The notes beneath the pieces are model-generated. The model worked only from the letters and a program-made list of their open reading frames with translations, searched no databases and had not been told where the DNA came from. A program made the position numbers and the translations under genes. From assembly GCA_001662655.1 (NCBI GenBank), contig KV460221.1: a stretch of 64,000 nucleotides of DNA; one strand, given 5' to 3'. Every line of letters starts with the position of its first letter. Within the stretch, counting starts at the first letter, position 1. The DNA is from Pseudogymnoascus verrucosus. Its lineage: Eukaryota. Of the stretch, positions 12,204 through 64,000 are shown piece after piece.

Positions 12204-15200
12204 CTACTCTCCTAAATCTCCCCATTATACTATTACGCAGCTCTTCATCTGATCTGCCTTTTTCTAGTTCTGACTCACTCTTAATCATTGCATTTTGGTT
12301 TCTGACGGGTGGTTCTGTATCTACTGTTAGAAGAGGCACACAACATTTAGAGCACGGGTCGTCGCAGTTTTAGTTGAAGATACGAAACCCGAGCCAGTTT
12401 AATTTAAATACGTACCATCATCAGACTTCTTCTTTGGCTTGTGCTCAGTCTTTAGCCAGAAGATTCGTGGCGCCTCTTTCAATTTACCCCAAATATATAG
12501 GGCAGTGTCCACGTGAAAAGCAAAATAGATTGCTGGGATAGACATTGCGGCGGAGGGCCCGACTTAAAATGTTTATTAGTGAGGTGCAAACAAAACACCG
12601 GCCAGTGTGTGATTAGAGTATACATACAAATCATTGGAAAGATCCATCCAGGTTTGTATGATAATTTATCAGATGCATGGGGAAATACTGTGATATCTAG
12701 AGCAAACAGTGCTGCTAAGAATGACATGGGAAGCTGATTTCGGATTTTTCCTGTCAGAAAGATTCACCGTAGGTTGATCAGTTTGTGTTGAGATAACTCA
12801 CGAAGACAATGGTAACAATCGTAAACACCATAAGTGTAGTGCCTTGCATTGCCGTTTCTTCGGCTTGTTTACGTGATGATTGCGCTTCGGATAGGTTGGC
12901 TTGCTTTTGCTTTAAATCCAGAAGATCGTTTATCTGCATCGGTTAGCGGTGAAATCGCCATCGAGCAGGAAGCGTTAGGACGCACCGATCTCTCTACACG
13001 TGTGGCATCTGTGATCATCTCCTCCAACATTTCGAGAATCTCGCCTGGCTCTCTTGAATTTAGGTAGTCCTTCTCCATCGTATACTCCGAGAACGCATCA
13101 TGCCACCCCTTTTTTGGATCCTTTGTCAAAGATTTAATCTCCGTCGTGTATTCAGAGAAAGCATCGTGCCACACTTTTTTCTGGTCCTTTATTAGGGATT
13201 TGAGGATGTTGAGTTCGTCCAATATATCCTTGATTAAGACCAAATAGCCTATCTCTTCATCAATTGAATACCCTTCATCAGTTGAATTATTTTTATTAAG
13301 GGTCTCCTTGAACTTCGAAAAAAGTTTTAACTCGCCGTCTTCCTATAAAAGTATTAGCAATAGTACTTATATCCACAGAACAAGACCATAAGAACGATGA
13401 AAGTTAACTTACGACATCACCGATAGCATTCTCAAAAATCTCCAAGATGGACAATGACAGTTTTTTCTCTGGAAGTATTACTTTCCGTTGCTCAATGACC
13501 CCAGTAGCGCTGCTAACGATTAGTTGCATCAATTGCTCTGGTGATGAAGGGGGGTGCCTATCATGATCACGTCCATCGATCAAGTGCTTGAAGACTCTCT
13601 TTAGTATGATATCAGGCTCCCCGTCTGTTTGGTAGCTTGAGCTAGTGATTATTTTATCTTTGTGACGTTGTTAGCACCTCTAATACGCCACCAATTCAAG
13701 GGAATTTAGCTTTACCGCCATCAATCACCCATAACCACAGTTGGTCCACCTGCAAGATTAGGCCTGTCTCATCTCTCCTGGGTGAATTGTGTTGGTCCTC
13801 CTCTGATTTTTTGTGTTGATTTTCCTTGGGGTTTTTATGTTGTCGGTTCCTCGGCTTTTTTTTCACGTGTTGCTGATCCACTGGGGGTGCATCGCGCGGC
13901 CTGCCAATACTATTCTCCTCCTTTTTCAGTGTAATGTATTTTGTGAGCACCTGATCCCCATTTCTCTTCTGGACGTCTTCTTCTGGTAAAGACGAGTAGT
14001 AGTACCGATCTAAGGTTCGCAATTCATGGATTGTTTCTCTCCCATACGCATCGACCAATGAATTAGGTAATTGAACGGATGCTCCATTCCCCAGATTAGC
14101 TTTGGAAAAGGTGAGATATGGCATCTGACGCTGATGTTAGACTTCCGGCGGTGAATAGTGTCTGTGACATACGTAAAGTGCAATATGGCTAACACCGCTT
14201 GATGTCCTACGCATCTCTGCTCCCAATTCCCTTCCTTGGAGAGATTTGACCTGTTCAGTGTTGGGGACGGTGTTGGTTCCTAGTTTTGTTGCAACCTCGC
14301 CCCTACTAGTTGGATCTATATTGCCCTGCATGTTTCGCTCTGGATCGGTTTTCAATGGCTGTCTCTGTACACATTTTAGCCGTCACTACTAGGCGTTAAA
14401 TTCCGAAAGGGTAACTAACTGTACACAGAGGTTTCATACTCCGCGAGAATTGATATACGCCGGATTTATCCGCATACGCACTTTGGAGCTCATGTCTATT
14501 TCCACGGACAAAGTTGCTCACTGGACGGTGTTCTTTATTTGTCGAAAATGACCGACTTAGTAAATCCTAATGAATGAGTTGTAAGTATAATGTGTCATAC
14601 TTTGGCTTGTGAATATTCTACCTCAATCCACTCCATCTATCCAGGTTTTGCATGATTAGTTTGCAGCTCACCGCTTGAGGATTGGAGTTTTGCTCACATT
14701 GTTGGCCGGAACATGTATCCATCTAAATCTGTATCCATCTTCGTGCACATCTTTCTTCTTGGAGTTTTGTTCTTGCCTTGTAGCGGCTGCGTGCTTTTGT
14801 GTTCCGGCAGCGGGTGTTTCGGGAGCGGGCTGCCTAGTAGCGGGTGGTACGGCAGGTGCTTCGGCATCAGCGGCTCCAGCAGCGGGTGCTTCAGTAGCTA
14901 TCGGGTTACCCACGGCATTCTGAATAGGTTGATCTACCCCGGAAGCTTTATTCAATGATTTCGGCTCTTTGCGATCCATTCCGGCACCGGTCATGATCTC
15001 ATCTAACGTTAGGCTTTTATCGTAGATAGTTTCAAGCATCGTCCGGCTTAGAGCTGCAAAGCTGACATGGCCAGCCTTGTTGTAAAAATCTACGATAGTG
15101 GCCCTATATTTTTTGCACACCATTTCCTTTTTCCCTGACGGCTGCGGCACACTGGGAAATCCATCTGGATCGTACTGGTCATACACATTTTCCACTCGGG

Positions 15201-18021
15201 GAGGACTGTAAAGGCAATCCTTTATTTCCCTGTATTGCCGTTCCTTTTCGCTCTTTACTTCCAGGGTGAGACTCGCAGTATTGTTCAACTTGGTTAACAA
15301 TGTATCAACCATATCCGTTGCGTCTTCAAAAATTGGAGATGTTAAGATTGTCGGGCCATTCCTCCGCAATAGCCACCAGACAACCTTGTAGTGACCGTAA
15401 TACACAGCCCAAAGCAGACCAGTCCATTTCTGATCTGGAAACAAACCCTGGGGGCCGTTATCCAGAATATTAGGCGCCAGTATTTTTTTATCAACAATCA
15501 ATTCCACGTACTCTTCAAGCCCAGTTCGTGCAACCTCAGTCAATTCATCCCAAGCGACCTTGGAATCCCTACCAAAATCATGCTCCGTAAGAACTTCCAA
15601 AAGGGTTTTAGCTACACCTTGGTGGCCATTGTCGGCTGCCTGAGACAAGGGGGTTTTGCCGTCTTTGGTTTTTTTTCTGATGATTTTCTGTAGCTCCGAA
15701 TGCTTCTCCAACCACCGCAATAAGAAGGAGACAGCGTTTTGGTGACCATTCCTTGCAGCAAAATAGAGAGCTGTTTCCCCATTCCGTGATTCCACAAGAA
15801 TCTGAGCCCATGATTCCTTATAGAGCAACGCTTTATCATTTTTTGATTTAGCAGCAACTTCGTCGCTGACAGAACCTTCCAGCAAAGATGTCATTGTGTC
15901 CACGTAGCCATTACCTGCTGCGAAATGAAGCGGAATTATTTCGTCGTTCGTCTTGTCGGATATCTTCGCCATAACATTTGTTTCCATCGAACCACGTTTC
16001 TTAAAACAGTCCATGAGCTGCTCAAGAACACCGGGGTATCCATTACACGCAGCCACATGAAGCAGCGTTTCTCCCGATTTAGTTTTCAAGTCACACAGGT
16101 TCCCCTGCCGATTAAAACAAGTCCTGGCTACCGATTGCCATCCATAATATACCGCCCAATGCACTACCAGATGCCAATGCATCAGAGAATCCAGCTCACT
16201 TTCCGATTTGTCCTCAAAATAATCGATAAAAAACCTTCTGACTTCCTGTACGTCACGCTGATTCATCTTCGCAGAAGAACCAAGCTTAAGCCTAGGCAGC
16301 GCAAACGCCTCAAGGCCCATGAGGAAGCAAACTGCATCGTATTCTTGCTCAGTGGCAGCTACACTCAATGCCGTACCTCCCTTGTCGTCTTTCCAAAGTA
16401 TTGTGTCTCGATCGAGTTTCCCAACTAATTCTTCCAGGGTTTCAACGCTGCCAGATTCAGCGGCCATGTGCAACACTGTTCGCCCATCGTTCGTTTTTGC
16501 CAATAAATCGGAACCTGCCTTTAGGAGTGAGATTAATATATCCTTCTTGCCATTAAGAGCGGCAATGAGTAGCGGTGTCGATTGTGTTCTTTTTGTCACG
16601 ACCTTCAGTATTGATTCGTCACCAAGGAGAGAATCAACTTCAACGCCTCCTCGAGCGGCACTATGTAGAACTGTCCATCCATCATTATCTTGCTTGCCTA
16701 TCAAGTTTTTCGCACCATCTATAGCCAAGAGACGGCCAAAAGTCTTCTTGGAGCCATGGTAGGCAGCTGAATGTAGAGGAGTCCCTTCGTTGGTTGATTC
16801 AATCTTCCAATCTGCGTCATTATCCAAAAGCATATTGACGATATCCAGACAGTCTTCGCGAGCTGCAAGAAGTAAGGGGGTCTCCTTGTCTCGGTTCTCA
16901 AAATTAACAATAGTATGCTTTATCCCAATTCTATCTCCAGCCTCTAGAATCTGGCGTAGTACATCAATATTGTTGTTCTGGGCAGCAATATGAGCAGCCG
17001 TCCATCCGTTCGTCTCATCGTCTAAAAGGAAATCCTTGTCGTACTTCAGTTCTAAAATCTTCGCTGCGATCTCTGGCCAATCGTGTCGAGCAGCTAAAAA
17101 GAGGGTCGTCTGGTTTGGATCTCCATCCTCTTCATCATCATCAAATCTACTGTCGATTTTTGCACCTTCTCCTAGCAGGCGAATGAATTTCTCGAGATTT
17201 CCGTCTACAATTGCTTGACCAAAAGCTTGATTTAACTCAACCTCGCGAGACGTCAGATCCTCGGATGATATTTGGGCCAAGCGGACTTTGTAGGTATCCC
17301 TCGTTTCATCTTCGTCGTCGTCATCTTCTTCTTCCTGTTCCTCCTCCGGACTCGGTGCTGGACCTGATTCTGGGTCTGGCACCAGGTCCGCTGCTGGGTC
17401 TAATTCTTGGGCTGGTTGAGCGTCAGGTTCGGCGCCTAGCGCAGAGCCTGGTTCTAGATTCCGTTCCGTATCAAGTTCTGCATCCGATTGTAAGGGTAAC
17501 CTCCCATCTGACTGTGACGGAGGCCCATTATTAATCGGTATTTTTTCAACCCGCACCCCATTATCAACTAGACCCAAATCCACATTAGGGACAGTAGTGG
17601 CCGATTCAGTTTCGGTCACGTTCTGACTTCTGGTTAGGGAATCAGATTGAATGATAATTTCCCTAGTTCCGCCATCATTACTACTAGTCGCTGTGGCTGC
17701 ATCGGCAGTGTCAGACTGATGGATACGCGTATCCGGTTCTTGCTGGCCGCCATCAACGGCTGTATTATTGCCGCTATTGGAATCACGACTTGGCGTTGCC
17801 TCCTCGGTCACTGTCAAATTTTCGCCTGCGCTCACAGCATCAGAATGACTGATGCTTTGCTCATTATTGCCGGTCACCGCTGCTGGGTCGGCAGCGTCAG
17901 ACTGGTGGGTAGGCGTAGCGATTTCTTGTAGGACCTCGTCGGTTGATGGAGCCTCGCCGCCGTCGGAATTAAGATTCGGCCTTGCATCCTCCGCCGGTGT
18001 CGCGACACTGCTGCTATCCAT
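12204..18021 (-). CDS. Large ankyrin-repeat protein with C-terminal CorA-like two-TM domain, about 10 exons
   Basis: Acidic disordered N-terminus; many ANK repeats (GWTAAHIAA, ETPLLLAA, GTPLHSAA, GRTVLHMAA, GETALYFAA); FRWIHVPANN, VDQLWLWVIDG, IKDILDELNIL, LLDLKQKQANL, VFTIVTIVFLPMSFLAALFAL. The 3' end is uncertain. Confidence 0.8.
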
Positions 18022-38501: not shown

Positions 38502-41500
38502 TTAGGCCTCATCGTCCGTATCAGGATAACGTGGAGTCCCCTTAGGACTGGAGAGCCACTCAATGTGTCTCAGACGTCTGCGGACCTCTCTGTCCTTGAG
38601 ATCCTTCTTGGTCATCTTCTTCTTCTTGCGGGCACGGAAAGTCATATCTCCCGTATCCTCGGCGCCGCTGTTGGCGGTGCTGGGGGCGGCGCTGGAGACG
38701 ACGCTGCTTGCCATCGAGGCGACGGTGCTGGGGATTCCGCTGCCGGGGCGGGAATCCTCGAAGCGGTCTGCGGAGACGGCGAGGTGACCCTTGTGGGTGA
38801 CGCGTCCATCAGCGACGTACCACTGCTCCGGGCAAAGCGCGCCAACAAACTCCTCGTTATGGGAGATCATGACGACACCACCCTTGTAGTCGCGGATAGC
38901 CACAGCGAGACCACCGAGGGAGTCGCGGTCCAAGAAATTGGTGGGCTCGTCGAGGACGAGGAGATGGGGGTTATTCCACATGGCGCCTGCGAGGACGACC
39001 TTAACCTTTTGGCCACCGGAGAGGCCGGAGATCTCGTTGTGGTTTGCGATTTCGGGGTCGAGACCCAGGTCTTCGAAGTGCTTGGAGATGACTTTGGGGG
39101 AGAGCTCGCGGAAGCCGAGACCTTCGCGGGAGGCTTCGTGGTCGTCGAATTCTTGGACGAGCTTGCTGAAGCCGCGGTCGACGAGGGTTTCGCGGGAGAT
39201 TTGGGTGTTGTCCTTGGGGAGCATGAACTTCCATTTACTGGGTCATTGTTAGCATTTTATTATCTCGATTTGGGGTGAATTTGGCTTACACTTCGTATTG
39301 GAAGGTCTTCTTCCACTTCTGACGACCCATAATGGACTCGATCATGCGTCCTCCGCGTCCGTCACCGAGATCAATCTCAACCTTCATCTGCTCCTTGTCG
39401 GCCTCAGAGAGGATACGAGTCTGCTTCATGTGGACCTCACGATCATCACCGTTGGCATAACGCCACTGGAGGTACTGGTTGGGGGTCTTCTCGAGATGCA
39501 TCTCCACGTGCTCAAGGGCGTGCTGCTTGATGTAACCAATACGCAAGTTGGGGTGCTTCTCAACACGGCCAGTGGTTGGGATGGTCTCGCCAGTCAGGAG
39601 CTTGATGAGAGTGGACTTTCCGGCACCGTTGCCACCGATGATGGCTGTGCGGGAGGAGAGGGACAGGGAGCAGGAGACGTCGTGGAGGGACGGCTTGTTG
39701 CTTCCGGGGTAGGTGTAGGAGCAGTTGGTCATGCGGAGGATGGAGCGGGTGTTGGACTTGACACCGGTCAAGATACCGGGAGGTGGGAACTTGAACTGCG
39801 CGTTCGAGGCGGAGAGGGTGTAGTAACTCTTGGCCTCGGGCTTCTGCTTGACAAATTCGGCCAAGTTGCCCTTGTAGCAGGCGAGCTTCTTTCCGGGCTC
39901 GTAGTGGTAGATATCCGTGCAGACTTCATCGAGGAAGCCGGAGTCGTGAGAAACGATCAGGGAAGTGATCTCGGTGTGGGTCTTGAGGTAATCCTGCAGC
40001 CACTTGACGTTGGCAACATCCAAGTGATTGGTAGGTTCGTCCAGAAGGAGAACATCAGCCTTCATCAACATAGCTCTAGCAAGAGCGAGCTTCATCTTCC
40101 ATCCACCGGACAGCGAGCCGACCTTCTCGGACTGGCGACCCTCGGGGCCGGCAGTGAAGCCGACCTCGGCAAGGACCTCAGAGATACGCTCCATTCCGGC
40201 GGAGGCGATGGCAGGATCCTTTGCGACAAAGTTCAGAATGCTAATATCAGCATCCTCACCCTGGTTGTGCTCGACGAAGCAGGTACGGAGGACATCCTGG
40301 CTGGGGAAACCCTCAAGCTTGCCGTTGGAGATGGCACGCATGAGAGTAGACTTTCCGGCACCGTTACGTCCGCAAAGACCGTATCTGTGGCCCTTGAGGA
40401 GACGGAGGTTGGTGTGGGAGAGCAAGAGCATACCACCGTAGGCAAGGGAGAAATCGGCGTTGACAATCTCAATCTCTCCGTCGTCCTCCTTGACTGGCTT
40501 ACCGTACTTGCGGTGGTCCTCCTCGACGTAGAAGTTCTGGACGGCATCACCAATGGCAGCGGCTGCCTCGGGGGTCTTCAGGACCTGGGGCAGGTATGGG
40601 GTAACTCTGGCAGCGATGCGGGGAGTCTGGCGGTGGTTGGCATCCTCGGCGACCATGGCGCCAATGTATGGGCCAAGGAGCTTGAAGATGGCGCTGGCGT
40701 CGCCAGCAAGACCTCCAGCCTTTGCGATCTCAGCATCAAGAACCTTGGTGACGTCCTCGATGGTGACGCGGGCAATCTCTCCGTGGGATGCTCCGGAGAC
40801 ATCATCACCCATAGCCTTCTTGATGACGTTAAGTGCTCTGGTGGCCATGTCACGGACCTCGGGTAGGGACGCTCTGTCCTGAACGCCCTTAACACCGGGA
40901 AGGAGCTTTGGCAAGAAAGTACGAGCCTCAACCGGGTCGTGGACAAGCTTTGTCAAGTTCTCCACGACAACAACGGTCTGTCTGAGGACCTCTTGTGCGG
41001 TGGTAGGGGTGTTGAGGGAACGCTCGAGGAGAGGGGTGAGGAGCGCCAGGACGGGGGAGGTGACGATGGCGACGAAGGTGGTTTGCGACAGGGCGTGGAT
41101 GGCCTTTTGCAGGGTCTCGGTGGACGGGTTCTGCATGGTCGCAACGAGGAGTGGGATGCGAGGGGCAACATCGTCGTTGGAAAGGAGGGTGGTAAGGGAG
41201 TTCATGGTGTTGATAGCGGCCTTCTCGACCTCAGTCTTCAAGTCGTGCATTCCCTCCTCGACAATTGGGATAAGACCAGCAAGCTTGGATCCCAGAGAGT
41301 CGCGGAGCATATCCTTATCGTTTGCCTCCTCCTTGGTGGTGCCAGCCTCAAGCTTGGCCTTGTCGGCGATGCGCTGGAGGAGCTTGTAGGCACCAACTGT
41401 TCCTTGCCACTTGCCGGTGCGCTTGGAGAGGTAGAGAGAGAGAACTGGGAGGAGTGCAATAACAAGAGCCTCGGAGCTCAGGAGGACAAAGAGAGCGTCA

Positions 41501-41931
41501 AGCGCGTACTGCGCGGCATCTCTCACCACAGCGCCCTTATCGGCGAGGGCGTCGAGAGCGCAGGGGACGAGACCGCCATCTTGTATGAGAAAGACAACCT
41601 CGGTGATTGGCTGCGGGGTAGGGAAACGCTCGAAGAGGGCACCGAGGAGGTTCTGGGCGCTCTCACGCTTCAGTCCGCTCTTCTTGTCCGCTGCGGCCTT
41701 CTTGATCTCGGCAACGATGCCGTAGGCGTGGAGGCCACGGTAGCCGACGGAGTTGAGGAGGATTTGTGTGAGGGCATAGGAAGCGTCGACGGAGGCAGCG
41801 GAGGAGTCGGCAGTGAAGATGGTGCTGAGGAGCGAGGAGATCTCCTCTTGGGTAGGCGCCACGGTGGACGGGACGTCAGATTTGATAAGCATGGTGGGCT
41901 GTGGTCGGGTTGGAGAGACTGGATGCGGCAT
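38502..41931 (-). CDS. NEW1: eEF3-like ABC-F protein, New1/Elf1 type
   Basis: HEAT region, two ABC cassettes (GRNGAGKST, LSGGWKMK, LLDEPTNHLD; GGNGAGKST, LSGGQKVK), chromodomain insert, C-terminus REVRRRLRHIEWLSSPKGTP; one intron ~39238-39291. Confidence 0.88.
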
Positions 41932-47888: not shown

Positions 47889-48614
47889 ATGCGCCAATCT
47901 ATCGCCCTTGCCATCGCTGCCATTGCAGGCGTCTTCGCCGCACCAGCCAGCTACAGCCATGCACGCGGCAATTCCACCATGCAGGGACAAGGCGACTTCT
48001 TCTGGGGCGGAGCCGTCCAAGAAGGCCCCCAAGGCACCGGCTGGAACTTCGTCCAAGGTAGCGTAGTCGTCCCCAACTTCAGCGGCGGGGACCCGCGGCA
48101 GTCCGCGAACATGTGGGTCGGCATCGACGGCCGATACTGCTCCAGCGCCATCCTGCAGACCGGTCTTGTCGTCTACGGCGATGGGTCCTTCTGGCTCTGG
48201 ACAGAGTGGTGGAAGAATGTGATGCAGGATTATCAGAGTGGGCTTACTTTTGCGCCTGGTGATACGTTGCGCTTCACGGTGCATTCGACGAGCTATACGT
48301 CTGGCACCACGACGGTGGAGAACTTGAGCAATGGGGAGTGGGTCTCGCAGACTTATACGAGCGAGACGGACTATCCGCTCTGTGAGACGGATGCGGAGTG
48401 GATTCTTGAGGACTGGACGCAGAATGGACAGCCGGTGCCGCTTTATAATTGGGGTACTATTAGTATTTTTGATACGGCTGCGAGGAACCCCAATCGTCAG
48501 GTCACTGCTGCTGGCGCTGATATTGTTAATATCAACATCAATGGGTATATTCTTACTGAGAGCAATGTTCAGTCTGATGGTACTGTCAGCGTCACTTACA
48601 TTGGGCCTAACTAG
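47889..48614 (+). CDS. Secreted glutamic peptidase, family G1 (scytalidopepsin/aspergillopepsin-2-like)
   Basis: Signal peptide; WGGAV, MWVGIDG, catalytic Q in AILQTG, catalytic E in AEWILED. Confidence 0.9.
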   Translation: MRQSIALAIAAIAGVFAAPASYSHARGNSTMQGQGDFFWGGAVQEGPQGTGWNFVQGSVVVPNFSGGDPRQSANMWVGIDGRYCSSAILQTGLVVYGDGSFWLWTEWWKNVMQDYQSGLTFAPGDTLRFTVHSTSYTSGTTTVENLSNGEWVSQTYTSETDYPLCETDAEWILEDWTQNGQPVPLYNWGTISIFDTAARNPNRQVTAAGADIVNININGYILTESNVQSDGTVSVTYIGPN

Positions 48615-49099
48615 GATTGGGTATTTCGGGATAAGATAAAGTACGACGGTAGTGGAATATAAGTCTCGGTGTCTTGTTCTCATTTTCCATAATTCACATG
48701 TGAGCCATAAGTCCGAAAGTGCAGAGCGAGCAGCCGCCTGTCAGGTGGATCATCTCTCTGTGGATCTCCGGGTAGGTCCCGCTAGATGATGCCGGTAAAG
48801 GAGAATGGGCTGCATCGCCGCCTGGTATTCGAGAGAACCAATTCAGAGGGTATATAGGGCATATATGGTATATACTCTATTGTACTTTATGGTTCGATAT
48901 CATAATAAACTGTCACATACGACCACACAAGCTTACGTAACTCCTGGGTAGTAGTATCAGTCGCGCCAATAAGCTTAGCGTAGAGTCTAGGTCCCTTGCT
49001 GCCTAAAGCGGGATTTGGGGGAGAAACCAGGTCATCCTACTCCTGCTACCTGAGGATATATTTCCTTCACTAACCATCCAACGAATATCATCATTTACT

Positions 49100-50110
49100 A
49101 TGGCAAGAACAAAACAAACTGCCCGCAGGTCAACAGGTGGCGCTGCCCCTCGGGCACAGCTCGCTGGCAGCTATCAGCGAGGAGCTTATCTCTTCGATTA
49201 CGGAAACCTTCCAGTACAACAACATGATGATGTCTCGGAAGAGGAGCCTATAATTCCTGATATACCAATAGTTTTAAACGCAGCAACGACTTCGGGTGCT
49301 CAAACGGAGGTGTTTTCTACTCCGGACGTTCTTGTGATCATTCTATCTCAGCTTCCGCACTCCTCCTTGCTCAACGCCAAACTGGTTAATAAAACGTGGG
49401 CAAGCCTTTTCGATAACGTGGAAATCCGAGCTTCTTTATTTGAGTGCCCCAGACCTAAAGAATCGGCTCTGTATACGGAAACATATTCGGATCTATTGAT
49501 GGATAAGTTCTTGGCTCCTTGGCCAACCAACGAAGATGAGTATGCAGACAAGCACCTCAGTTGGCAATTGCGACAACTTCTTGTTTGCCAACCACCAGTT
49601 GAAGCTCTCGAGATTGTTCAAGAGGTCAACCAACGTTATGGCGGTGCTTTGGAATTTCGAACGATTATTCCTCGTCCCAACGGTTTGCGGATGGGGTTTC
49701 TTTATGATGCGATTAGACATTGGCATCAAGTGGAAAGAAGCCCTGTCAAGCTACTTTGGAATAGGAAAACTGGTGACCTTGCCGATAGCATGCATTATTA
49801 TCCAGATGGACCTGGTTACAAGACGTTTGGCGACAAGCCTTGCGTAACTATCTGGGGACAGAAAGGTGTAGGATGCGGGCAATACGGTGGTCTTACGTAC
49901 GAGCACTACCATTTTTTGCAGGATAATACGCAAACACAAAAGCCCAGAGTTCGGGTTATAGAAAGCGATGATGAGAAGGTGAAGTTTTCTATGTCGGAGC
50001 CTAAATCCGTAAAGCTTAATATGATGTTACTCCTTGCTTCTGACCTAAAAGGTCGGTTCAATAAATTTCTAGGAGAGTTATTGCCTAAACAGAACCAGCC
50101 TCAGGTCTAG
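49100..50110 (+). CDS. F-box-like protein with an N-terminal histone H3 tail mimic
   Basis: Starts [22 protein letters not shown]; aa ~71-114 [34 protein letters not shown] fit the F-box pattern; no histone fold. Confidence 0.8.
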   Translation: [336 protein letters not shown]

Positions 50111-51105
50111 ACAAATAGATTATCAAAGCTTTAAAAAATGGTATTTATTTATTTCTAGATACTGTAATTTAGGGTTGATTGAAATAAATACTTCGTCAAA
50201 ATCGTGAGGGCGGCGGTCGCTCACCCAATACGTCTCACACTGGTCAGATCCTCCCGAGCCTTCCTTCGGCCCGGTTAGTCTGTCCTGGCTGACTCTTATT
50301 CTGGGGATCTGACAGGTCCAACACGTCTAACAAGTCAATAGTTTCTTTTTTTCATCCGTTGATATTGAGTCGAAAATAGCTCGAAGGAGCAGTTATGTAG
50401 CCAACATGCGACCAAGGGCCAGAGTATGTCCAAAGGTAGTTGGTCGAACTTGCCAAGCCGATTATTTGTGCCAGGCATTAACCACCACGTAAAAACGCGG
50501 TCTTGAAACCCGCGACCACTTTCCCGAAAACACCAACACGCAGGGATCCCCATCTAATTTTAACCCTGTTCGCAGCTGCGGAACCATGTCGCGATCCTTC
50601 GGTGGTCGCTCCAAATGAAGCTATCCCTTATCATGAACATAACCATAAGCACATGACACTAGCATTCAATTACTACAGCACCAAGGGTCGCACCAACACA
50701 CAGCCCCAAAGTGCTGCCGCATCTCAGCCGCACAGCCATTTCGCGCATGCACCCTGACTTGTGAAACCCAAAAATGGATTTTTTAGAGGATCCCGACATG
50801 GTATCATTGCTGGCCTTGCCGGCAAGACGAGGCTGTGGGATTGCGTTCCCTGTTGCGGACCCCAACAGCATGCGAGCACTGTCCCATTAGGACGTGAAAT
50901 GTCCCGCGATAGTATCTCAGTGGGCCCTTATTTCGTTTTTCGCGTTGTAGAGGGGTTTTGTTCCGTGAAGAGGACATGGCGCTGGTTGAAACTTCATGGG
51001 CCAGGATGACAGGGCTCGACGACGGTTCGCAATGTATAAGGGTGTCGGTCGTCCATTGAGCATTAGGCGGACGACAGAAAGAAGTTTAGAGCTCGAGATT
51101 CAGCT

Positions 51106-60255: not shown

Positions 60256-62155
60256 TTAAAACTGCCCCTCGGTATTTCCCTCTCCCATGCTCTTACTGCT
60301 GCTGCTACCACTCTGGATGGCGCCGAGGATACCATCAATGTAGCTCGCCCCGCTCCACTTCTGGTGCGTCAGCACATCAACACCCAACTCCTTCTCCGGG
60401 CGCTGAATCAAATTGACATAAGCCAACATGCCCTCATCCTTGAACTTCCTCGACAGCTCCGTCGTAATGGTAGCCGTGGAGTGGATCCCCGCCAGCGAAA
60501 TCAGCTGCAGCACAAACCCATGCTTCGCAATGTCCCAGATAAACGACTTGAGCGTCTCATCCGTGAACCCGTGCCCGCTCCAGTTAAACGACGGCGACAA
60601 GTTATACACGAGGCCCTTGCCCGGGTGACGCTCGCGGATCTCCCCCGCGAACCGCGCTGCGTCCTTGACGACCGGATCCCCCGTCTCAACCCAGAGCAGA
60701 TCCGCGTACGGCGCGTACTCGATCGCGCGCTTGGTCGCTGCCGTCATCCCGGCGCGGTAGTGGTAGTACCCCTCGCGTGTTCGCGGCACGTCCCACGAGA
60801 AGAAGATGGGCGAGTCGGTGAAGCGCTGCGCGTACTCGTTGCGCTTGGTGACGGAGAGGTCGCGGTTCGCGGCCGTGTGGGCGAGGTAGGCGTCGATGTC
60901 TGATTGGGGCACGCCGCGGGCCTGGAAGGCTTGGACGGCGGCTTCGTCGAAGGAAACGAGCTTGGTGTTCTTGACCCAGTTGGCTTCGAAGTCGTCGATT
61001 TCGGAGCCCTTGGCGCCGGATTGCTCCATGGCTTGGAGGGTTTCGGCGAGGGGCTTGATGGAGGGGTCGGCGACACCGAGGATGAATTCGTGGTCGCGGA
61101 CGTCAATGGCGCTGCTGATGAGCTTGCCGCTCTCGGAGTCGGTGCGCGCGATGACGAGGTTCTCGGAGCCCATGACGTCCCACTGGAAGCGCGCGGCGAC
61201 GAGGCGGTTGATGTGCTCGCCGACGGGGACGAGGACTTTGCCGGCCAAGTGACCGCACTTCTTGCCGCCGTGCATCTGGTCCTCGAAGTGGACGCCTGCG
61301 GCGCCGTTCTCGGCGAAGAGCTTGGCGATCTTGAGGACTGAGGAGAGGCCGCCGTGGCCGGTGTCACCGTCTGCGATGATGGGGCGCAGGAAATCGGTGT
61401 AGGGGGTCTTGGCGCGTTGCTCGGGGGTCAGCTTGCGCCGGGCGTCCCAGTGTTTCCTGTCGTGCATGGATTGTGCCTTCGCGAGGCGCTGGACTTGGTT
61501 CGGGACGGTGTTGTAGGGATAGTCGCCGAAGTCTGGGGAGACTTCGTTGGTGGTGGTGAGGACGGCGGAGCAGGCCCAGCCGGAGACGTAGAGGACTTCT
61601 TGGTTTGGTGCTTGTTGGGTCATTTGGACGGGGTCAATTGCTCCCACTGTAGTTTTGTTAGCATTCTGTTATTCCTGTAGTATTTGTAGGGTGTAGTCTT
61701 TGTAGGGCGTAGTCTTCGTAGGGTGTGTCATGGCAGTACGTACTTGTGTGAATTGGCTCTCCTGCCGCCTCGCGCTCCTTGATGAGGTTGAACAGCTTCC
61801 TCGCCATCACAGAGCTGGGGTATGACTGCAGCTGACTGCCGCGCTTCGAGACGATGTCCGCAGCCGTGTAAGGCCTCTTGATGCCGTCGTATCGCGGGGT
61901 CGCCCACCACGCCTCGACATCCTTGATCTGCTGGTCGTACAGCGCATCTTCTGCCGCGCCGGCCTTCTCGCTCTCGGGCAGCAGCTGGAAGCCGTCGGAA
62001 GGCAGCTGTGCGGATATGGGTGGGTTGGCGGGCTTGAGGGCTGCCATCCTGGGGACGGCGGAGGAGAGAAGGCGGGTGCGGGGTTGTTGGGAGAGGGCGC
62101 TGGTGAGTGTCGCTGGGGCTTTGCGAGGGAGCGTGGAAGCTATCCTGCGGAGCAT
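60256..62155 (-). CDS. ICL2: Mitochondrial 2-methylisocitrate lyase
   Basis: Arg/Ser-rich presequence [30 protein letters not shown] catalytic motif, [16 protein letters not shown]; divergent from a methylcitrate synthase-type gene. Confidence 0.88.
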
Positions 62156-62910: not shown

Positions 62911-64000
62911 ATGGCCATGAACGCAAGAACCACGACGAGGGCCTTCAGGGCTCTACGCGTAAGTCTACACCCTCAATGACCTCAATTACCTCAATTCCAC
63001 CTACCTGATCAATTCCTAACACTCCCCAGCCCTCCACCCTCCGCCCAATCGTCATCAATGCCACCCGCAGCTACGCCAGCTCCTCGGAGCCCAGCCTGAA
63101 GGACACCATGAAGGCCGTCATCCCCGCCAAGCGCGAGCTCCTCAAGAAAGTCAAGGCCCACAGCGACAAGGTCATCGGCGAGGTCAAGATCGAGAACACC
63201 CTCGGCGGCATGCGCGGTCTCAAAGCCATGGTCTGGGAAGGCTCCGTCCTCGACGCAAACGAGGGCATCCGCTTCCACGGCCGCACAATCAAGGAGTGCC
63301 AAGCTGAGCTCCCCAAGGGAACTTCCGGCACCGAGATGCTCCCCGAGGCCATGTTCTGGCTCCTCCTCACCGGCCAAGTCCCAACCGTCGGACAAACCCG
63401 CCAGTTCTCCCGCGAGCTCGCAGAGCAGGGCCAGCTCCCTGACTTCGTCAACTCCCTCCTCGACTCCCTACCAAAGGACCTGCACCCAATGACACAGTTC
63501 GCCATCGCCGTGTCAGCACTGAACCACACCTCCTCCTTCGCCAAGGCCTACGAGGCCGGCATCAACAAGGCCGACTACTGGGAGCCTACCTTCGACGACT
63601 CCATCTCCCTCCTCGCCAAGCTGCCCACCATCGCAGCCAAGATCTACCAGAACGCGTATAACGGCGGCGGTGCCCTGCCCGCTGAGATCGACACCGCGCA
63701 GGATTGGTCGTACAACTTCGCTGCCATGCTGGGACGTGGTGGCGAGAAGCACGAGGATTTCCAGGATCTTCTGCGTTTGTACCTTGCTCTGCACGGTGAC
63801 CACGAGGGTGGTAACGTCTCGGCGCATGCTACCCACTTGGTTGGCTCCGCGCTGAGCGACCCCTTCCTTTCTTACTCCGCTGGACTCCAGGGTCTCGCTG
63901 GTCCTCTTCACGGGTTCGTCCTCCTCCCTCCCCCCTCTTTCCACCCCACCCCCACCTCCTCAACATTTTATTTCATACCCTTGACGCACCCCCACTAACA
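62911..64000 (+). CDS. mcsA: Mitochondrial 2-methylcitrate synthase (partial, runs off the window)
   Basis: Presequence; GGMRGLKAMVWEGSVLDANEGIRF, LHPMTQF, HGDHEGGNVSAH, GLAGPLHG; adjacent to methylisocitrate lyase. Confidence 0.85.

Follow-up and report, generated by a model that had tools for sequence, protein, structure and literature searches.

Why should a fungal F-box protein begin with the N-terminus of histone H3? The question is raised by a locus on contig KV460221.1 of the Pseudogymnoascus verrucosus assembly GCA_001662655.1, from which a single stretch of 64,000 nucleotides (the window) was analyzed. An intronless open reading frame (ORF) at 49100..50110 on the plus strand encodes 336 amino acids and a stop, with no interruption; its product consists of an H3-like tail, a linker, an F-box and a C-terminal domain. 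The tail segment (49100..49165, +), which reads ATG GCA AGA ACA AAA CAA ACT GCC CGC AGG TCA ACA GGT GGC GCT GCC CCT CGG GCA CAG CTC GCT, comprises the start codon and 21 codons matching histone H3 residues 1-21. The answer we favor, at about even confidence and from comparison of sequences, is that this segment is a selected mimic of the H3 tail, placed at the extreme N-terminus of an adaptor of SCF (Skp1, cullin, F-box) ubiquitin ligases, which would use it to engage partners that bind the H3 tail.

The match itself is clear. Residues 2-22 of the ORF correspond to H3 residues 1-21 in exact N-terminal register, with 18 of the 21 identical (H3 numbering is used below for the tail). As the original prediction had stated, the tail departs from H3 solely at three lysines, K9R, K14A and K18A, which translation and the phmmer alignment confirm; the alignment likewise confirms that R2, T3, K4, Q5, T6, R8, S10, T11 and R17 are retained. 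When the first 40 residues were compared by phmmer with all PDB chains, the matches were histone H3 tails (E about 1e-6) and H3 proteins, one of them named Cse4, with a best E of 8.5e-7. A degenerate pattern written for codons 1-9 matches the DNA of the window only once, at 49100, and matched none of 100 dinucleotide shuffles even with up to two mismatches allowed. No second H3-like stretch was found: BLASTP of residues 1-40 against residues 41-140 produced no alignment at E<=100, and the tail takes part in no direct DNA repeat. With 18 of 21 residues identical in register and no hit among the shuffles, the resemblance is beyond chance, and at the sequence level the tail counts as a histone-tail copy carried by a non-histone protein. 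The protein is not itself a histone: at E<=1 in Pfam it shows no histone fold (PF00125) and nothing apart from F-box families. The likeness to H3 stops at residue 22-27 of the ORF, position A21 being followed by GSYQRG. According to one report, yeast H3 is clipped after A21, the same residue where the likeness ends here (PMC3938757), which may be no more than coincidence.

The tail is firmly tied to the rest of the protein by the layout of the frame. The ATG at 49100 is the earliest in-frame ATG downstream of an in-frame upstream stop, and the next Met after the initiator is residue 134, C-terminal to the F-box. There being no other Met before residue 134, and the F-box lying upstream of it, any AUG-started product that contains the F-box carries the tail. 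The ORF corresponds to an NCBI hypothetical protein of Pseudogymnoascus sp. VKM F-103 at a listed identity of 100% (rounded), with one residue different: residue 316 (50045-50047) is Leu in the window (ASDLKGRF) and Pro in the database representative P0002 (ASDPKGRF).

Of the 1269 candidates in the homolog search, 59 proteins reached E<=0.001, which makes 60 sequences with the window protein added. Their sources, as named, include Pseudogymnoascus spp., Venustampulla, Bisporella, Stipitochalara, Oidiodendron, Cadophora, Glarea, Scytalidium, Xylogone, Zarea, Aphanocladium and Lecanicillium. An H3-type start with no more than three substitutions is present in 31 of the 59 database homologs (32 of 60 with the window protein), and it spans Leotiomycete genera as well as homologs in the Hypocreales; the clade with the tail includes early-branching Hypocreales members that keep both K14 and K18. 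Many of the tail-less homologs are fragments or start at an internal Met some 48 residues further on. At least one of them, P0032, is a truncated gene call, for the corresponding metagenome ORF, L006, starts with the tail. The metagenome scan turned up 14 loci, of which 10 are orthologs; all 10 are uninterrupted ORFs from the same ATG, nine with the tail and one, L001, with a decayed version of it.

The wider family looks different. When 1.84 billion representatives were searched with a profile, 424 relatives reached E<=0.001. The distant ones (about 240-330 amino acids) align from profile positions 60-67 or so at residues 2-10 of their own sequence, and hence start at the F-box, without tail and linker. 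These ordinary ascomycete F-box proteins share with the window protein the F-box and the C-terminal domain (motifs W-R-x-L-L-V-x-Q-P-P and G-L-R-M-G-x-L-Y-D), but lack its clade-specific N-terminal extension. Tail and linker are thus an N-terminal addition peculiar to a single clade within a broader family of ascomycete F-box proteins.

Is the tail maintained by selection? A quick IQ-TREE tree was built from 48 rows: the window protein, 5 locus ORFs and 42 database proteins that either have complete N-terminal regions or serve as outgroups, with fragments and near-duplicates excluded. A recognizable tail is present in 34 of the 48 rows, and the per-position counts given here and below refer to these 34 tails. 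The minimum number of changes on the tree is A1 0, R2 1, T3 1, K4 5, Q5 0, T6 2 and A7 1 for the first seven H3 positions; R8 0, K9 10, S10 1, T11 2, G12 7, G13 1 and K14 16 for the next seven; and A15 1, P16 1, R17 1, K18 16, Q19 12, L20 2 and A21 8 for the last. K14 and K18 are thus the fastest-evolving tail positions, and once K14, K18, Q19, K9, A21, G12 and K4 are set aside the other 14 show 0-2 changes each. Rebuilding the tree without the tail columns left the per-position counts identical. The median number of changes per column is 1 in the tail and 1 in the F-box, compared with 5 in the C-terminal domain, 6 in the middle region and 11 in the linker. Substitutions among orthologs are therefore far from random in placement, since they gather at K14, K18, Q19 and K9.

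The coding sequences tell the same story. Nei-Gojobori (NG86) estimates of the ratio of nonsynonymous to synonymous differences per site (pN/pS) from 8 coding sequences, or 28 pairs, are 0.36 for the tail (a value that includes the decayed L001), 0.72 for the linker, 0.22 for the F-box and 0.33 for the C-terminal domain. Among intact tails, pairwise pN is 0.02-0.10 while pS reaches 0.76: window and L009 differ at pS 0.70 and pN 0.07, and L004 and L009 at pS 0.76 and pN 0.02. At the DNA level, ortholog tails are identical to one another at 46-57 of 66 positions. Of the 21 tail codons, 14 are invariant in amino acid among 7 ortholog DNAs, and at 13 of these the residue is encoded by two or three synonymous codons. 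The earlier suggestion of synonymous drift with amino-acid retention is borne out by these figures, as is the conclusion drawn from it, namely selection rather than a fresh H3 fragment, given the wide taxon range, the high pS with low pN and the synonymous variation of nearly all invariant codons. On this evidence purifying selection has kept the tail, no less strongly than it has the F-box. Constraint covers A1-G13 and A15-R17 and excludes K14, K18 and Q19, with K9 held loosely (29 of 34 tails have K or R there).

G+C content at third codon positions (GC3) is 0.41 in the tail and 0.43 in the whole ORF, so that the tail's codon usage agrees with that of its own gene and not with that of the high-GC3 genes of the window. 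The ORF's value is the minimum among the 20 ATG-started ORFs of at least 200 amino acids in the window; the remaining ones range from 0.45 to 0.84, with isocitrate lyase at 0.84, citrate synthase at 0.79 and elongation factor 3 at 0.72. The opening tail codons are A-ending, as had been described, where a C/G-ending bias had been noted for highly expressed genes of the window.

What, then, of the three lysines that distinguish the window tail from H3? The original prediction saw in them a tail tuned by selection for K4 specificity, unable to take methylation at K9 or acetylation at K9, K14 or K18 and offering fewer sites for auto-ubiquitylation. Part of this holds. K4 (codon AAA, 49112..49114, +) is kept in 29 of the 34 tails, with R in 4 and G in 1, and in the window protein it is the only lysine of residues 1-93, there being none in residues 6-93 and the next at residue 94. 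Position 14, A in the window (codon GCT, 49142..49144, +), is K in only 5 of 34 tails and so lost in 29; position 18, also A (codon GCA, 49154..49156, +), is K in 4 and lost in 30. With 16 changes each, both positions evolve as fast as the fastest linker columns (range 3-20). Lysine-poor stretches are also reported in ubiquitin-system proteins (PMC10665810, PMC10169902). The remainder of the proposal fares less well. K9 is retained in 22 of 34 tails, with R in 7 (the window among them) and other residues in 5, and four tails have R in place of K4. A chemically varied set of residues takes the place of lysine at position 14 (A, P, V, I, Q, R, T and F), a pattern suggestive of relaxed constraint, and the substitutes at position 18 are mostly R, preserving the charge. 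P0007 keeps all four lysines, its tail being exactly that of H3, and together with P0050 and P0054 it retains both K14 and K18. Family-wide, lysine makes up 4.1% of the linker and 4.7% of the remaining sequence, with 0-5 lysines in ortholog linkers; a lysine desert was accordingly set aside as a family trait, since the lysine-free stretch at residues 6-93 of the window protein does not look conserved in ortholog linkers, and the idea of fewer auto-ubiquitylation sites stands for the window protein but not for the family.

The histories of the individual changes point the same way. The R at position 9 (codon AGG, 49127..49129, +) is one nucleotide away from AAG, and the closest relative of the window protein, P0003, has K9, from which it follows that K9R is recent in the window's lineage; it sits, moreover, in a subclade with decaying sister tails. 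It is true, as had been noted, that K-to-A takes two nucleotide changes per codon, since AAR to GCN alters codon positions 1 and 2. At position 18, orthologs carry AAA, AGA, ACA and GCA, which provide one-step paths to the window's GCA. K14A and K18A are best read as a family-wide freedom at side chains for which the partner would have no need; K9R is best seen as a conservative change specific to the window's lineage. A purpose-built design, K4-only and ubiquitin-proof, is not what the three differences suggest, and we consider tuning of that kind unlikely.

Three further explanations of the tail deserve consideration, and the data bear on them unequally. The resemblance might be without function, whether through recent capture of an H3 fragment, as a relic or as an artefact of gene modeling, and the loss or decay of the tail in several lineages, with at least seven presence/absence changes, is what such an account would expect. 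Against it are the occurrence of the tail from Leotiomycetes to Hypocreales, its contiguity with the F-box in uninterrupted ORFs (the window and all 10 ortholog loci), synonymous divergence near saturation with amino acids retained, and conservation like that of the F-box with no alternative Met ahead of it. This reading appears largely refuted and is, in our judgment, scarcely credible. The tail could instead be a borrowed H3 nuclear localization signal (NLS) that brings the F-box protein to the nucleus. Across the family the tail has a basic composition, with 18.9% Arg and 8.4% Lys; R17 hardly varies, and roughly half of the tails have R or K at position 18. In H3, residues 1-28 are reported to serve as an NLS for the importin Kap123 (PMC5677370). 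The same source indicates that Kap123 reads K14 and K23, that K14A weakens affinity and that the ordered residues are only 12-17 and 21-26 (PMC5677370), whereas position 14 is A in the window and variable in the family, the tail ends at A21 with no H3-like K23 (GSYQRG comes next), and its best-conserved part, residues 1-13, is not among the residues described there as read by Kap123. The Kap123 consensus given there, small-K-small-(X)6 or more-K with its lysines at H3 positions 14 and 23 (PMC5677370), does not match the window protein, given A14 and the lack of any lysine until residue 94, and K14 is present in just 5 of 34 tails. Nor would a simple basic NLS keep T3, Q5, T6, A7, S10, T11 and G13 near-invariant, and we regard nuclear import as a very unlikely explanation of the tail.

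It could also be that kinases or methyltransferases directed at H3 act on the tail (at T3, S10 and T11, and at K4 or K9), with the marks regulating the activity, stability or chromatin docking of the F-box protein. T3, S10 and T11 are known phospho-acceptors in H3; each is kept in 32-33 of the 34 tails, and the A-R-K/R-S motif in 29. The K4R and K9R variants would, on the other hand, be closed to lysine methyltransferases, and the sequence evidence does not separate this account from the engagement of H3-tail-binding partners. Regulation by marks on the tail seems to us quite unlikely.

Downstream of the tail lies a linker, residues 23-64 (49166..49291, +), which is predicted to be disordered, with a predicted local distance difference test score (pLDDT) of 36-48, and which is poorly conserved, as the median of 11 changes per column and the pN/pS of 0.72 attest. 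Within this fast-changing region a Y-G-x-x-P motif at residues 34-38 (49199-49213) is semi-conserved (Y34 in 26 of 32 sequences, G35 in 25 and P38 in 23) and may be a second short linear motif. The F-box, residues 75-109 (49322..49426, +), is matched by Pfam PF00646 at E=1.8e-6 and 28.1 bits, against a cut-off of 20.5; I81, L82, S83, Q84, L85, P86, H87 and W100 are invariant in 45 aligned sequences. The C-terminal alpha/beta domain, at about residues 165-330 (49592..50089, +), is presumed to be the substrate-binding part. In the AlphaFold2 (AF2) model, built from a 45-sequence alignment, it has a pLDDT of about 85-94, while residues 1-160, the F-box region included, are of low confidence and the tail, at about 50, is uninformative, as expected of a linear motif. 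An AF2 prediction of the C-terminal domain alone, from an 8-sequence alignment, gave a mean pLDDT of 39. Foldseek found no match to the domain in the PDB at E<=1e-3, and the best result of a wide VIA-align comparison was Z 3.4, with weak Nudix-like rows; the modeled fold has no clear solved relative. Complex prediction of residues 1-40 with residues 150-336 gave a score of 0.00, which counts neither for nor against binding of the tail to the C-terminal domain. One Pseudogymnoascus homolog, P0029 (509 amino acids), is annotated as the F-box and part of the C-terminal domain joined to ankyrin repeats (PF13637), and its N-terminus lacks the tail; a fused or truncated gene model may be the explanation.

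How might an adaptor of this kind use a histone tail? F-box proteins are the substrate-adaptor class of the SCF ubiquitin ligases, and it is an established rule that the initiator Met is removed when Ala is at position 2. Removal of the Met before Ala2 would leave a free A-R-T-K N-terminus, the same as that of H3, which could consequently dock into proteins that recognize the H3 N-terminus. The exposed tail would then be expected to enter readers of a long H3 N-terminal stretch, such as PHD-finger or WD40 readers, or an LSD1-type demethylase, and the F-box would couple the tail-bound partner to Skp1 and cullin, leading either to ubiquitylation of the partner, with the tail acting as bait, or to localization of the ligase. 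The constraint on A1-R17, with position 14 skipped, would suit proteins that read a long unmodified H3 N-terminus.

N-terminal H3 mimics that recruit chromatin enzymes have precedents. The SNAG domain of SNAI1, GFI1 and INSM1 is an N-terminal mimic of the H3 tail that occupies the H3-binding cleft of LSD1, and LSD1 requires H3 peptides of more than 16 residues (PMC5066116). SNAG, like the window tail, occupies the very N-terminus of a non-histone regulator and follows the initiator Met without a gap, and the need of LSD1 for a long peptide would fit the conservation of A1-R17. The characteristic SNAG residues, P2, R3, S4, F5, R8 and K9 in that source (PMC5066116), are not those of H3, in contrast to the A-R-T-K-Q-T-A-R-R of the window tail, which is 18/21 H3; the window tail lacks the SNAG residue set, a finding that bears on family membership only and not on occupancy of the cleft. 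SNAG is furthermore carried by animal zinc-finger repressors, the present tail by a fungal F-box protein for which LSD1 binding is a proposal. PAF15 offers a second parallel, being an endogenous protein with an H3-like N-terminus that is recognized and ubiquitylated by UHRF1, a ubiquitin ligase that reads the H3 tail (PMC7060239). There the mimic is the substrate of the ligase, whereas here it is carried by the ligase adaptor; taxon and domain context also differ.

Several observations weigh against engagement of H3-tail-binding partners as an explanation, or at least limit it. Partner binding is predicted from sequence, and binding of Skp1 by the F-box is likewise assumed, from the Pfam match. 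The presence of R at position 4 in four tails argues against K4 methylation as an essential feature. A single reader does not as a rule require as much as is conserved here, 14 of 17 consecutive positions. Occasional gene conversion from H3 is a candidate contributor to the likeness, the exact tail of P0007 being a candidate case. On the 48-row tree the tail has been gained or lost at least seven times, and it is dispensable in some lineages. Decay is also close at hand, in two of the four members of the window's own subclade, P0005 (MARTRSTPHRR...) and L001 (MAGTGQTARELTGG...); the decayed tails of L001 (258-1229) and P0005 read MAGTGQTARELTGGPAPRVLLHG and MARTRSTPHRRSEYTARGL, and the remainder of each protein is 71-78% identical. 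For the tails of the window and L001, pN is 0.27 and pS 0.12, and constraint on the tail may be weakening in the window's Pseudogymnoascus subclade.

The tail is not confined to this family. A search restricted to residues 1-40 examined 5 candidates and missed known family members, and so says little on how frequent such tails are. It did find a second, unrelated small family of four unnamed database proteins (P0061-P0064; 142-232 amino acids, no Pfam domain), the three full-length members of which start MARTKQTAR[R/E]STGGMAPRAQ. Over the tail stretch P0061 and the window protein agree at 19 of 20 residues, A18 included, with no similarity detectable beyond it. R9 is common to the window protein, P0061 and P0062, P0063 has E9, and A18 is found in all three full-length proteins. 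Shared residues of this kind suggest that the tail module has been copied between genes within the window's lineage and would hence be portable. Two other sequences resemble the tail. A 176-nt contig of sequencing run X17, from another organism, matches 49099-49140 over 42 nt with 6 differences, and its loose end encodes KAPRKQLAT; the contig has the appearance of a genuine H3 message with A-rich codons. P0151, a 185-amino-acid database ORF, has three tandem H3-tail-like units and is probably a tandem array of H3 first exons or pseudogenes from some other organism.

The surroundings of the gene are unremarkable in this respect. Neighboring ORFs of the window match Peptidase A4 (47889-48614, +), isocitrate lyase (60256-61623, -), citrate synthase (63108-63998, +), elongation factor 3 (39286-41931, -) and a large ankyrin-repeat protein (14668-18021, -), and among these matched families no chromatin link is evident. 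Sequencing runs X14, X16 and X17, whose RNA nature is only guessed, hold pieces of the ORF of 151-255 nt with 0-1 differences, and they are not counted as evidence of expression. In run X1, a possible source, a search with 48900-50300 at a likeness of at least 80% returned a single contig and no piece of an H3 gene or of a second tail gene. The same comparison did return the 42-nt match in X17, and a match of that kind is hence within its reach; record filters apply, and the absence in X1 is not counted as evidence.

To our knowledge, histone-tail mimicry is known mainly from viral motifs of 4-6 residues and from a few animal regulators, SNAG and PAF15 among them. Viral histone mimics are 4-6 residue motifs, internal or C-terminal, and are directed at the host. 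In influenza NS1, SARS-CoV-2 ORF8 and the hepatitis delta virus (HDV) antigen, as in the fungal protein, a short disordered histone-like motif is carried on a non-histone protein and is proposed to engage the chromatin machinery (PMC6028506, bioRxiv 10.1101/2021.11.10.468057, PMC6972770). Here, by contrast, the copy is N-terminal, in register and 21 residues long, it belongs to a cellular gene, and its proposed action is on the organism's own chromatin factors. No description of an F-box protein with an H3 tail was found in the open-access literature searched. What is new, then, is a cellular gene family with a 21-residue, in-register and selection-maintained H3 N-terminus on a ubiquitin-ligase adaptor.

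A more specific form of the engagement of H3-tail-binding partners can be offered tentatively, as a possibility that we do not expect to be the likeliest outcome. SCF adaptors of this clade may use the tail to catch an enzyme or reader that binds the H3 N-terminus and deliver it to the ligase, the mimic competing with nucleosomal H3 and so setting the levels of chromatin modifiers. Candidate partners include a demethylase of the LSD1 type and the PHD or WD40 subunits of complexes directed at K4; the freely varying positions, K14 and K18, would then be those with which the partner makes no contact. More generally, if the tail engages H3 readers or enzymes, the family would be a natural analog of engineered bait-type degraders, its tails would be a natural mutational scan, in which the partner needs A1-G13 and A15-R17 and not K14, K18 or Q19, and these fungi would have a new means of coupling the abundance or location of chromatin modifiers to the ubiquitin system.

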